Positions 5,834 to 47,751 of a stretch of 64,000 bases of DNA are shown here, piece after piece. The notes beneath the pieces are model-generated. The model searched no databases. It was not told the origin of the DNA and saw nothing but the letters and a program-made list of their open reading frames with translations. The first letter of the stretch is position 1, and every line of letters starts with the position of its first letter. This DNA is from a virus. The DNA is taken from the IMG/VR virus record IMGVR_UViG_3300033144_003548. One strand, given 5' to 3'. A program made the position numbers and the translations under genes.

Positions 5834-7450
5834 CTAATACAAATGCCGTTCTACCCATGTCATACCACCATCATCCGTAGTCCAAACAGAACTACCAGAA
5901 GCGACATAAATTGTCTTCCACTCCATTTGTTGCCCAAATTCTATTGGAATTACTCTCGTTAGAGAATGACTTAATGGTGGGTCTCCCTTATCAGTAACCG
6001 TTAAAGTTACTGGTAAACTAAAAATACCACCAGATACCACATAGGAATTTGCTATGCCAGTCGCATTATCATACCCCGAACAAACCCATAAATAAGATAA
6101 GTCTTCTACAGGACCATTTGGGTCATAAGATGCCGCAGCATTTACGTAAACTTCACCCACAAACGAACCATCAGACAAAACTTCGGTTTCTATCCTATAA
6201 TCAAACAATGCTACAGGAGAGACATTTTCTATTGGTGGTGAACCAGGAACTTCTGCTCCTGCTCCTCCAACAAGGTTCAATATCATAGTCCACTCACCCG
6301 CAGCAAATCTGCTAGAATAATCATATAAAACATAACTAACATTCACCGCAGTTGCATAAGGGTCATATATACCTATCGTCTGTCCAATTCCGATTCTAGG
6401 GTCACCTTCTATAGTAGCAGTAGCAGTATGTCTCAACCTATTCAAATCACTGTAGACTCTCTGAGCTACAGTTGTAACCAATTCCTGCGTATCGAGCAAG
6501 TAAGACCTAATCTCTGTCCGCCTATACCTTGGTGGGTTAGGAACATACTCCGATTCACCTGCAACAGTAGATATTAAATCTCCATAACCAATTACAGTCA
6601 CCCAATTTCTCAAATCATCGTCTGTCCTACTTTCTACACTAATTAAATTACCTGGAGTAACTACTGTAAACTTTTCACTGTCGTAAGTTTCCTTTTGACT
6701 TCTATAGTACACTGATGCCGTTTCACCAGCAATCATCCTAACTTCCTTGCACTGGACTTGACCTACGGGGTCTGCCCAAATACGGTAACCAATCAAGTCA
6801 CAAATTCTGTTAATAGCTTCCATCGCAGATTCATAAACAAATACTGCTACAGCATTATTACCAATGACTATTGCTCCAGAAGCAGGATAATCCACAAAAT
6901 CTAGTTGTTGCCTACTTTCTGGTATCCCACTTTCAGTTAATAATGTACTTATAATCTTTTTTGCCGTTCTGTCAGCAGGTGCTTGCCCACCCATTGGGTT
7001 ACCATATTGGTCTAATTCATCATCAACCAAATCTTTGAAATAGACTTTCCTATTAGTTTGAGTTAAGTAGTTATCTTGGGCAAGCTTCAACATGTCACGA
7101 CATTCTAATCTTTGAAGCTGTGGTGGGTTAGTAAACTCAGCTTGGTCAACAAAGCCAAAGAAGGTTGTCCGAAGGGTTGATGTTTTATTCCAACCTTGTT
7201 CAACTTTGACTCTATCCATTGGTTCAAATCGAACAGGGTCGCCATTTAAATCAAGTGGAGTCTTAATTACCAAAGTACAAGTAGAGCTACCTTGGTCAAA
7301 CCCATAGTTTATATCACAGCTTATAACTTCGGGGTAATAGTTGTGCCCCTCAGCATCAACACCAGGAATATCATCTTCAAGAAACCTAGTGAGAGTTACC
7401 CTAATTAAAGGTGTTTTTACTCTTTTAGCATACTCCTCAGCAATACCCAT
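5834..7450 (-). CDS. Baseplate hub/Tal-like protein with C-terminal PKD-like domain
   Basis: Hub-like N-terminus (FFGFVD...ECRD; GYRIWADP.G); PVALF...ASYDPNG...SYLW...VTLTVTD PKD signature; order TMP-Dit-hub. Confidence 0.7.
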   Translation of the reverse strand: MGIAEEYAKRVKTPLIRVTLTRFLEDDIPGVDAEGHNYYPEVISCDINYGFDQGSSTCTLVIKTPLDLNGDPVRFEPMDRVKVEQGWNKTSTLRTTFFGFVDQAEFTNPPQLQRLECRDMLKLAQDNYLTQTNRKVYFKDLVDDELDQYGNPMGGQAPADRTAKKIISTLLTESGIPESRQQLDFVDYPASGAIVIGNNAVAVFVYESAMEAINRICDLIGYRIWADPVGQVQCKEVRMIAGETASVYYRSQKETYDSEKFTVVTPGNLISVESRTDDDLRNWVTVIGYGDLISTVAGESEYVPNPPRYRRTEIRSYLLDTQELVTTVAQRVYSDLNRLRHTATATIEGDPRIGIGQTIGIYDPYATAVNVSYVLYDYSSRFAAGEWTMILNLVGGAGAEVPGSPPIENVSPVALFDYRIETEVLSDGSFVGEVYVNAAASYDPNGPVEDLSYLWVCSGYDNATGIANSYVVSGGIFSLPVTLTVTDKGDPPLSHSLTRVIPIEFGQQMEWKTIYVASGSSVWTTDDGGMTWVERHLY

Positions 7451-42613: not shown

Positions 42614-42642
42614 ATTATAACATATTGAGGGTTAATTGTCAA
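42614..42642 (-). promoter_or_regulatory. Sigma-A promoter driving left arm
   Basis: TTGACAATTAACCCTCAATATGTTATAAT. Confidence 0.85.
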
Positions 42643-42927
42643 GCCCTGTTGTAACGAAGGTGCAAGATGTATTGCTACGTGCTACCTTTTGCACGCAGGC
42701 TGAAAACTTTGAAAAATTGTCTAGACCAGTACGGGGATCACAACGTGGCGGATTATGTAAAGTAGGGGCGTTTTTTATGTAAACTAGGCGGGGGTTAAAA
42801 CTGGCGTGCTCTGAGACACTCTATAATCAAAATCCTGCCCGTTTTATCAATATGGGTATATTATACCAGTGAGAATTTACCACGCCCAAAAATCGCTTAA
42901 AATCGCTTAAAATCATACTCTAGGGTA

Positions 42928-42957
42928 TTGACAAGTAAAATAATTCTATGGTAAAAT
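42928..42957 (+). promoter_or_regulatory. Sigma-A promoter of the GGC/GCC-free gene
   Basis: TTGACA-18-TAAAAT with extended -10 TG; additional TATAAT at 42962. Confidence 0.7.
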
Positions 42958-43164
42958 TAGGTATAATTAAATAAGGTGGTATTGAGAATGAATGAATAAA
43001 CAAAGCTAGGTGTAAAGCTAAGAGTAAGCACCACAAAGCTATCAGTGGAGACACTGAATCCAGTTTGCTATACTGGTAATAAGTGGAGTAACAGAGATAA
43101 ACTCCAGTGTAACAGTAACAAAACTGTAAAACAATCTCAAAACTAAAATTGAGGTGATTATACA

Positions 43165-43872
43165 ATGTCTAACGAAATGGACAAGTCAACAAGCGGTAAC
43201 ACGGTAATTATATCTTCAACCGTTCTCGGTCAAAAAAGAGCTGAATATCAGCGACTTAAAGACAAGGGAATTGCTGAGGATAGAATAACCGAGAGAATGA
43301 CCGAGGATGCTCTCCAGTTCGGTATCACTCTTGAGAATTACCAGACACAGCTAAACAATCTCAAGAGCAAGTCAAGCGGTGGTGAGCAAATCGAGGAAAA
43401 GAGGAAAGAGCATACCGCTAAACTACAAAGCGAATTCCTTGACTACCTCGGTTATGCAAATGGGGTTACTCAAGTTGACTGGAAAAAAGTTCAGTTCAGC
43501 AAGGATAACTTCAAAAAGCTGGTAAAATTCCTTGCTGGTATGGGTGAAGCAACCGACAAGCTGATAACCTCACTTCAGAATACTGAATTTACACAGAAGA
43601 GGGGTAAACAAGCGTGGATGGTTATGCTTCACGCACCAGTCCATAATCACATCACGGATAAACCGACCAATACAAAGTTACTTGCTCCGTTTTGTGGTGG
43701 GTGGACTGATAAGGGTAGGTCGTATGACCAGTACGGTATCCGTATGGAAGCGTCTGGAGCAGCGACTTTTTACCGACCAGTTAGCTATGAGACTCCAGTA
43801 AAGACCACTGGACTTGAAGCACCAGCAAGCGATAATCCAGAGACTCCAGAGAATACCGACAATAAGAGCTAA
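43165..43872 (+). CDS. Hypothetical (candidate pre-early) protein, paralog of 47215
   Basis: GAGGTG RBS; own promoter; N-terminal similarity to 47215. Confidence 0.85.
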   Translation: MSNEMDKSTSGNTVIISSTVLGQKRAEYQRLKDKGIAEDRITERMTEDALQFGITLENYQTQLNNLKSKSSGGEQIEEKRKEHTAKLQSEFLDYLGYANGVTQVDWKKVQFSKDNFKKLVKFLAGMGEATDKLITSLQNTEFTQKRGKQAWMVMLHAPVHNHITDKPTNTKLLAPFCGGWTDKGRSYDQYGIRMEASGAATFYRPVSYETPVKTTGLEAPASDNPETPENTDNKS

Positions 43873-43942
43873 TCAGTCAAGGGTAAGGGTAGGGTAGTAA
43901 TACCCTACCCTACCCACTAAAAAAAACAAAGTGAGGTCAATT

Positions 43943-44086
43943 ATGTGTGAGCATTGTAATTTAGTCAATTGTCCAGTACTCAACAAAGCTGAATGTCCTA
44001 TCAATATCTTGTGGGCTGAGGCAGACAGGATAAGGGCAGAGACTGAGGCGGCAATCAAAGAGGCTGAGGCAATTATCGGCGACTGA
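43943..44086 (+). CDS. 47-aa Cys-rich protein
   Basis: Own translation MCEHCNLVNCPVLNKAECP...; GAGG RBS. Confidence 0.6.
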   Translation: MCEHCNLVNCPVLNKAECPINILWAEADRIRAETEAAIKEAEAIIGD

Positions 44087-44094
44087 GTAATTAT

Positions 44095-44128
44095 TGGGGC
44101 GGCTGAATAAGTCGCCCCACTTTTTTTA
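44095..44128 (+). terminator. Rho-independent terminator
   Basis: TGGGGCGGCT-GAATA-AGTCGCCCCA followed by T7. Confidence 0.85.
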
Positions 44129-44277
44129 TGCCCAAAAAGCAACATTATGTCAACTTTACATATAATTTATAGTGCGATCCAAGTTAGCTTCAAATTGAGC
44201 CTAAAAAGCTACTTTATGTAAAGTAGAGCCTAAAATTCACGCTCAAAGTGGGTCGCACTATCTACTATATGTCAAGT
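44128..44277. repeat. Cluster of four dif-like (XerC/XerD) 28-bp sites
   Basis: 11-6-11 sites with WTATGTMAAST arms; GGATCGCACTA/GGGTCGCACTA arms in inverted orientation. Confidence 0.6.
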
Positions 44278-44288
44278 AAAGCATCAGT

Positions 44289-44431
44289 GGCAAATGAGCC
44301 AGCGTGCCTGAACGCCAATTCTGGCAGATTCGCCAATAGCCTGAACGGCAAATAAGCCTGTATGCCTGAACAATGTGCCTAGAGCCTTGCCTGAACTGCC
44401 GTTGATGGCGAATAAGCCAAAAAGCCTGAAC
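44289..44431. repeat. Interleaved GCCTGAAC (x5) and GGC-N6-GCC (x4) repeats
   Basis: GCCTGAAC at 44306, 44339, 44364, 44389, 44424; palindromes at 44289, 44323, 44347, 44407. Confidence 0.85.
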
Positions 44432-44592
44432 AGCACGCCACAGAGCAGGAGCAAGGTAAGTTGGTGGCAGGATTTCAAATCGAGGTTACTCTCAGGCAGA
44501 TTTACCAGATGGGGGTAACAGAGCCAAAGCCAAAAGGCACGCCAAAGCTGCTGGCAGAACAACCAGCAACTCTGAACGTGCCTCGTTAGAGA

Positions 44593-47214: not shown

Positions 47215-47751
47215 GTGGGTAAGACTCAAACAGTCGAAATCCAGCCAACGGTTCTCGGTAGGAAAAATGCCGAGTATGCTCGTCTGCGTGAGAAAGGCAT
47301 CGCAGAAGAGCGTGTTGTTGAGCGGATGGCAGAGGATGCAAAAGTCTTCGGCGTGACTCTTGAGGACTATCAGGGTCGTCTGGCTGAAGTTGGTCGAAAG
47401 ACTGGCGATGGTAAGCGGGCAGCTTTGAAAGCCCGAAAGGAAGCGGTGCAGGCGAAGCATCTGGAAGTCTGTTCGTTTCTGAATGAGGTTATCACCACAG
47501 GTCAGACTGACTTAGCCGCTTTCCAAACCTCTCTTAAAGAGTTGGCTGAGAAAGCTGATGGGTGGGTTCTGATGACCGCCTGTGAGAAGGATGGCTCGAC
47601 TGGGGAAGGCTTGTTTACCATCAATGACTCTGGATGGAATGACGGCAGCAACCGTTCAAACCAGTATTCAGACCGCCCTCAGATGGTGGGTAAGTCGGGC
47701 AAGCACGTTCCTCATCCATTCCTTATCAGGGGCATCGAGCAGGGGAGCTAG
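47215..47751 (+). CDS. Hypothetical early protein, paralog of 43165
   Basis: AAGGAG RBS, GTG start; TVLG.K.AEY.RL..KGIAE.R..ERM.EDA..FG.TLE.YQ shared. Confidence 0.85.
   Translation: MGKTQTVEIQPTVLGRKNAEYARLREKGIAEERVVERMAEDAKVFGVTLEDYQGRLAEVGRKTGDGKRAALKARKEAVQAKHLEVCSFLNEVITTGQTDLAAFQTSLKELAEKADGWVLMTACEKDGSTGEGLFTINDSGWNDGSNRSNQYSDRPQMVGKSGKHVPHPFLIRGIEQGS

Follow-up and report, generated by a model that had tools for sequence, protein, structure and literature searches.

Dif-type sites and lone XerD arms around an early gene of a large tailed phage: probable mimicry of Chloroflexota dif

The early locus and its motifs

The window, the whole stretch of 64,000 nucleotides analyzed here, corresponds to bases 25924-89923 of a virus record of 138,618 bp, which was assembled as circular with a 97-bp end overlap. 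The genome encodes a tape-measure protein, a large terminase, a ribonucleotide reductase, and an ATP-dependent ligase, which indicates a tailed phage. This 139-kb phage also carries tRNAs. Genes are directed leftward up to ~42.6 kb of the window and rightward from ~47-48 kb, and the sign of the GC skew switches in the same region of divergence. Thus, the Xer motifs described below sit in a divergent early-control region, which is rich in near-consensus sigma-70 promoters.

The local order begins with a leftward promoter at 42642, followed by two boxes at 42753 and 42775. A sigma-70-type promoter on the plus strand (42928-42957; TTGACA-18-TAAAAT, with TG) is separated by a leader of ~200 nt (42960-43164) from a conserved early gene (43165-43872, plus strand), which encodes a protein of 235 aa assigned to no family and has half-site clusters on both sides. 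A hairpin lies 3' of this gene and is followed by a small plus-strand ORF (43943-44086) for a Cys-rich protein of 47 aa. An intrinsic terminator (44095-44127, plus strand; 10-bp stem and T run) abuts the motif cluster, which begins directly after it and extends over 44128-44277, and an array of GGC-N6-GCC/GCCTGAAC repeats occupies 44300-44440. The terminator before the cluster is conserved in the three close relatives L009, L010, and L018. Just upstream of the -35 element of the 42928 promoter, two direct copies of CGCTTAAAAT are present (42886-42915); this repeat is conserved in L009 and L018, and TTAAAATCG recurs beside XerD arms in L010. An Rfam search over 41-49 kb found no known RNA and only a sub-threshold tmRNA fragment.

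The 235-aa protein showed no PHROG and no significant Pfam match, and its AlphaFold model (pLDDT 70) had no Foldseek match in PDB at E <= 0.001. No Pfam match above the curated cut-off was obtained for ten neighboring ORFs. The N-terminal three-helix domain of the 235-aa protein is common to two paralogues. A paralogue at 47215-47751, 34% identical in the N-terminal domain, has its own strong promoter (47130) and no flanking XerD arms. The leader contains blocks conserved down to 33% protein identity, such as ..GATCAAGCGAAAGCTAGGAAGAGT.. (window 42960-43164, L009:5720-6000, L012:5740-6000, and L026:500-790), and may be a structured RNA. The slot of the 47-aa ORF, between the 3' hairpin and the terminator, is occupied by unrelated small ORFs in L009, L010, and L018, and a Cys-rich ORF like that of the window is kept there in the distant relatives L019, L026, and L027.

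All six motifs of the original prediction are present, at 44128-44155, 44197-44224, and 44250-44277 on the plus strand, at 44153-44180 on the minus strand, and at 42753 and 42775. They had been described as four dif-like sites and two half-sites. Two of the four are full 11-6-11 sites, while the other two turned out to be half-sites, 10 mismatches away from host dif and matching in the XerD arm only. The corrected tally in the window is two full dif-type sites and four lone XerD arms.

The full site B1, GGATCGCACTA-TAAATT-ATATGTAAAGT, occupies 44153-44180 on the minus strand (XerC arm 44170-44180, central region 44164-44169, and XerD arm 44153-44163), and the full site B2, GGGTCGCACTA-TCTACT-ATATGTCAAGT, occupies 44250-44277 on the plus strand. 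As had been predicted, the two are inverted, forming a 29-nt inverted repeat (44153-44181/44249-44277) with 83% complementarity. Their central regions are unlike (TAAATT vs TCTACT), and the inverted pair encloses 69 bp with no gene.

The four lone arms are all on the plus strand, one pair preceding the promoter and the other following the terminator of the 235-aa gene. U1 (TTATGTAAAGT, 42753-42763) has the sequence that is most frequent among the XerD arms of the listed Chloroflexota dif, and has no XerC-like arm at 5-8 bp when scored with the matrix of published dif sites. U2 (TTATGTAAACT, 42775-42785) lies 22 bp after U1. A1 (TTATGTCAACT, 44145-44155) overlaps head-to-head with the XerD arm of B1, and its 28-mer (44128-44155) differs from any listed host dif by 10 mismatches. 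A2 (TTATGTAAAGT), at 44214-44224, lies between B1 and B2; its 28-mer (44197-44224) likewise has 10 mismatches from host dif, the match being restricted to the XerD arm. Several arms overlap or are 12-14 bp apart, which leaves too little room for simultaneous occupancy of all arms by a clamp-shaped recombinase.

TATGTMAAST occurs in seven copies in the window against 0.80 expected, and none of 100 shuffles reached seven. Six of the eight copies in the whole genome fall within 1.5 kb (42754-44277), for which our own binomial estimate gives a chance of ~5e-11. The motif cluster is not due to chance. The reverse complement, ACTTKACATAA, resembles the -35 element of early promoters, but no box is accompanied by a -10 element at 16-18 bp, and the promoter reading was rejected. 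A likeness of the XerC arm (CACTAT) to promoters of the T7/SP6 type was unproductive.

Correspondence to dif of Chloroflexota

A dif matrix was built from 11 published sites of proteobacterial, firmicute, and actinobacterial origin (PMC2731167, PMC3025954). The phage 11-mer, which is of the type TTATGTNAANT, is a perfect XerD arm by this matrix; TTATGTAAAGT is the XerD arm of Bordetella, Geobacter, and Caulobacter dif, and TTATGTCAAGT is that of Frankia dif (PMC2731167, PMC3025954). The XerC arms of the phage score 0.6-2.7 bits, compared with 8.5-14.4 bits for real sites, with a matrix made from sites of other lineages. These scores are poor because the Chloroflexota XerC arm has a lineage-specific CACTA ending. 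E. coli and B. subtilis dif, to which the original prediction referred, are thus no more than approximate references, and the fitting model is Chloroflexota dif.

The pattern CGCACTA-N6-WTATGTMAAST, derived from B1 and B2, was searched against the genomes of 185,579 species, one genome per species. It matched at least 120 places, and 113 of the 120 listed belong to Chloroflexota, mostly Dehalococcoidia and SAR202. The fixed columns of the pattern match the phage by construction, and the agreement counts in the free columns, which are conserved in the listed hosts (TT at positions 3-4 and central TAAATG) and agree with the phage. The host dif consensus among the listed matches is RGTTCGCACTA-TAAATG-TTATGTAAAGT.

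B1 is identical to a Dehalococcoidia dif (L036) at 25 of 28 positions, including the central TAAAT, and lies within four mismatches of 18 listed host sites; its central region agrees with the host majority at five of six positions among the matches listed. B2 is identical at 23 of 28 positions to the closest listed host dif, and its XerC arm is found unchanged in L085 and L154:5775. The next-best 28-mers of the phage show 7-8 mismatches from listed host dif, and none besides B1 and B2 comes closer than seven. An XerC arm with ..TCGCACTA, as in Chloroflexota dif, is found in B1 and B2 only; no host-type XerC arm is present at 44128-44155, 44197-44224, 42753, and 42775 (at least 10 mismatches, or a background score). 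In both B1 and B2 the first base of the XerD arm is A, not T, which is rare in hosts (2/80). The comparison with a predicted host dif, proposed originally as a check, therefore came out in favor of the prediction, with three and five mismatches for B1 and B2, respectively.

This resemblance makes it likely, on balance, that the cluster imitates the chromosome dimer-resolution locus of the probable host lineage. The probable lineage is Chloroflexota, class Dehalococcoidia, an assignment made from dif mimicry alone. As to the host from gene content, the Atlas neighbors of the class II ribonucleotide reductase were taxonomically mixed.

The XerD-arm 11-mer occurs exactly once in each of the complete chromosomes G001 and G004. 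In four chromosomes, dif-type sites are located at 51%, 53%, 43%, and 44% of the circle from dnaA, and an XerD scoring above its curated threshold is encoded in all four, together with another Xer paralogue; examples are the XerD and XerC-like genes at G001:C1:2935517-2936398 and 2832645-2833511. The single 11-mer in G001 and G004, the location opposite dnaA, and the presence of Xer proteins together indicate that the matched sites are host dif.

Extra XerD arms are present at 27 of the 107 listed host dif loci with enough flank. They are nearly all inverted and lie 16-43 bp beyond the XerD arm (for example, L039:6971-7040 and L043:7330-7410). In L087, there are 9-10 inverted arms in a 30-bp tandem repeat, which ends at a second lone XerC arm. 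The phage shares this inverted-arm theme: an arm overlaps the XerD arm of B1, the same is seen in L010, and one full site of L009 has an inverted arm at a distance of 19 bp from its XerD arm. We know of no description of such an architecture, in which dif is combined with inverted XerD arms.

SMC was not found in G001-G005, five complete Dehalococcoidia chromosomes with this dif type, in searches with TIGR02168 (E <= 1e-20) and the hinge PF06470 (E <= 1e-3), for which controls were positive in 11/14 and 10/14 genomes. Judging from these searches, the Dehalococcoidia lineage with this dif may be without Smc-ScpAB. Since SMC is not found in the five chromosomes, the lone arms beside host dif should have another role, most simply that of helping to load or regulate XerD for recombination. 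The idea that the phage sites act as a shield from SMC-type complexes is disfavored by the same five chromosomes.

One 4.3-Mb Dehalococcoidia chromosome, G003 (OZ253472.1), contains 38 XerD-arm 11-mers (control 4). Full dif-like sites were located at L154:1585, 5775, 13768, and 13803, and at L155:1731, 3959, and 10765. Direct dif-like sites 2-8 kb apart flank accessory genes for a GH31 protein and a dehydrogenase, and for a Fic protein and an IS110 transposase. These site-flanked genes have the appearance of Xer-dependent modules or IMEX arrays. Two to five dif-like sites each are present in several further MAGs.

Conservation of the locus among relatives

Relatives were found through homologues of the 235-aa protein and the contigs encoding them, which are mostly short. 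The metagenome scan yielded six loci; blastn of 42.6-46.6 kb against 50,697 phage records gave no match, and scans of viral contigs found no relatives. The 235-aa gene is syntenic in all relatives, and its product is 84%, 76%, and 74% identical in L018, L010, and L009, respectively. In these three relatives, 2-4 XerD arms are located upstream of the promoter, at the same place as U1 and U2, and 2-10 arms after the terminator. Lone XerD arms number four in the window and 6-12 in the relatives. The original prediction had named absence of the motif from relatives as evidence against it; half-site clusters are present on both flanks in L009, L010, and L018, and full sites in L009 and L010.

In L009, two full sites point the same way, separated by 105 bp. 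Those of L010, also two, are inverted and combine the XerC arm GGAGCGTATAA with spacers of 6 and 8 bp, 8 bp being the rarer length in dif-type sites. L018, a 4-kb contig of the closest relative, has half-sites only and no full site at the locus, and it differs from the phage of the window by an indel bounded by XerD arms. The central regions of the two full sites are unrelated within each phage (that of the window, L009, and L010), and therefore the two full sites of one phage should not be substrates for each other; the persistence of the direct full sites in L009 is explained by this difference. Inversion or deletion between B1 and B2 was rejected, given TAAATT vs TCTACT and the two direct copies kept 105 bp apart in L009. 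The arms are conserved across the phages and the central regions vary, as is expected when binding is under selection.

A clade with ~60% identity (L012, L016, and L019) retains a single perfect arm, located ~60-80 bp before the promoter, and a few degenerate ones. Extensive arrays of another box, TATAAGAACA, adjoin these arms. More distant relatives have only one or two good arms and arrays of other boxes. On both flanks in other clades, 10-bp boxes (TATAAGAACA/TATATGAACA, and also TATGTGAGCT) form dense arrays, partly as perfect 16-bp palindromes; such arrays were seen at L012:5340-5630 and 6950-7200, in L016 and L019, and at L022:1080-1445. The arrays of the TATAAGAACA type (GAACA) look like counterparts of the GCCTGAAC array at 44300-44440, not of the XerD boxes.

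Possible roles and comparison with known systems

No tyrosine recombinase was found in the 138.6-kb genome with PF00589 at E <= 1, while the control was positive in 14/14 genomes. ParA (PF13614), ParB (PF02195), XafT (DUF3653), FtsK gamma, and FtsK/SpoIIIE were also not found in the phage. Because the phage has no recombinase found, any Xer activity must be that of the host. The proposal of host-type Xer sites on a phage is strongly supported: two full sites match Chloroflexota dif, no phage tyrosine recombinase was found, and the motif is kept in relatives. Taken together, the sequence evidence favors mimicry of host XerCD or XerD sites by the phage, which is considered probable.

Host XerD would bind all six arms, and host XerC would bind the two full sites. 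Each full site would then recombine with the identical copy on another phage DNA, so that a terminally redundant genome is closed into a circle or multimers are split. Such recombination between phage copies is possible, if short of probable. Alternatively, a full site would recombine with host dif, leading to integrase-free integration as in IMEX elements, which is less likely. The lone arms would help as accessory sites at which XerD is loaded, apparently their role beside host dif as well.

The use for integration that had been proposed is so far unsupported: searches with the large terminase in 401 Dehalococcoidia genomes, where one weak match of 29% was obtained, and in 50 genomes with this dif type revealed no close integrated relative. 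The pdif-like exchange of the 43165 gene fares poorly as well, as this gene is flanked by half-sites only and is found at the same position in all relatives.

A Xer recombination locus is the favored reading, and its main rival is binding by XerD without recombination. Arrays on the lone arms would form a barrier or anchor bracketing the early gene, for example as a roadblock that reinforces the terminator and insulates divergent and convergent early transcription, or as a stop for a DNA translocase, and the full sites would be later and dispensable. Such a role would account for the retention of half-sites at either flank in all four close genomes, against full sites that vary in presence and orientation, for the one perfect arm that even the 60%-identity clade has before its promoter, and for the arrays of XerD arms that also lie beside host dif. 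Sites of this kind with no recombination are established in B. subtilis (Karaboja et al. 2021, as cited in PMC11894783). Their one known role, however, is SMC unloading, and neither the TIGR02168 nor the hinge search found SMC in the five chromosomes; nor does a barrier explain the retention, in three phages, of full sites whose XerC arm and central region are host-like. Binding by XerD only is accordingly regarded as unlikely.

A protein of the phage itself could instead recognize the 11-bp boxes as iteron-like sites, the XerD likeness being incidental. The 235-aa product is a candidate: the boxes flank its single gene, and the N-terminal three-helix domain is common to two paralogues. In P1, iteron boxes flank a replication gene (incC-repA-incA). 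Direct repeats and overlapping palindromes are typical of dimeric DNA-binding proteins, and every clade of relatives has boxes at both places in a clade-specific sequence (TATAAGAACA or TATGTGAGCT). The match to host dif at 25 of 28 positions, XerC arm and central region included, is not explained in this way, and neither is the same architecture of dif and inverted arms in host chromosomes. The 235-aa protein has no recognizable DNA-binding family or fold, and the TATAAGAACA-type arrays seem to correspond to the GCCTGAAC array rather than to the XerD boxes, which leaves a phage-encoded binder quite unlikely. The full sites may otherwise be a passive relic without use to the phage, acquired by recombination from host dif or from a host module flanked by dif. 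They are missing in L018 and differ in orientation and in the number of flanking boxes among the phage of the window, L009, and L010; XerD arms bound the indel relative to L018, and possible donors exist in at least one Dehalococcoidia chromosome, where numerous dif-like sites flank accessory modules. A relic fits poorly, however, with the conservation of both arms across three diverged phages whose central regions and surrounding DNA have changed, and with the half-site clusters kept at two separate places in all close relatives, so that this origin is very improbable. Both the phage-encoded binder and the relic are less likely than a Xer recombination locus or an XerD-only barrier.

Xer borrowing has so far been described for small non-tailed phages and plasmids only, and no report of it by a large tailed phage was found. 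In the boldest reading, a large tailed phage of Chloroflexota would exploit the host Xer machinery in a manner so far undescribed. The locus would represent either the first tailed, integrase-free IMEX, a 139-kb phage with lysogeny at dif, or a recombination-independent device of XerD arrays, copied from the architecture of dif and inverted arms in SMC-less chromosomes; this is possible but somewhat unlikely. To our knowledge, almost no phages of Chloroflexota/Dehalococcoidia are known. The dif match has the specificity needed for a host marker, placing an uncultured phage family on this lineage, and dif mimicry could be a general signal for host prediction. The analysis also exposes traits of the host lineage (a CACTA-ending dif, inverted XerD arms, chromosomes in which accessory genes lie between numerous dif-like sites, and a seeming lack of SMC), which make the role of XerD at lone arms testable in a new setting. 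In a survey from 2025 (PMC12715192), tailed phages are treated as integrase-encoding.

The phage sites share with Chloroflexota dif the 11-6-11 layout, the XerC-arm ending CACTA instead of CATAA, the central TAAAT, the XerD arm, and an extra inverted XerD arm nearby, as in 27 of 107 listed host loci. They differ from it in being present as two copies with different central regions and four additional lone arms, in having A instead of T as the first base of the XerD arm, and in their location at the divergence point of early transcription instead of the replication terminus.

Like the integrase-free phages that use Xer (CTX/VGJ), this phage offers a dif-like site to host XerC/XerD and encodes no integrase. 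Within the central region, B1 agrees with host dif next to the XerC arm and departs from it next to the XerD arm, which is the pattern of attP in CTX/VGJ and some IMEX. Unlike these phages, it is a tailed phage of 139 kb with two sites and half-site arrays instead of one attP, with no integrated copies in the 451 genomes searched and no XafT (DUF3653). As in IMEX, an own integrase is lacking and a dif-like site is present; integration at host dif was not found in the genomes searched.

The multiple lone XerD arms with no XerC arm resemble the XDS at the B. subtilis terminus (Karaboja et al. 2021), although the phage arms are tightly clustered and partly overlapping. XDS unload Smc-ScpAB, whereas no SMC was found in the five candidate host-lineage chromosomes. 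Inverted site pairs are also known from Acinetobacter pdif, but the inverted full sites of the phage enclose 69 bp and no gene, unlike a pdif module.

Plasmids use cer/psi, and P1 uses Cre/lox, to close circles or split multimers. As in cer/psi, an XerC/XerD core site is carried on an extrachromosomal replicon, and the 8-bp spacer of L010 recalls cer. In contrast to cer/psi, there is no sign of accessory DNA of the PepA/ArgR/ArcA type on the XerC side, where XerD arms are found instead, and the phage has no partition genes, its assembly being circular with a 97-bp overlap. Cre/loxP of P1 is a possible functional analogue, in closing terminally redundant DNA into a circle and resolving dimers. 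P1 is a plasmid prophage with its own recombinase, whereas here the recombinase would be that of the host.
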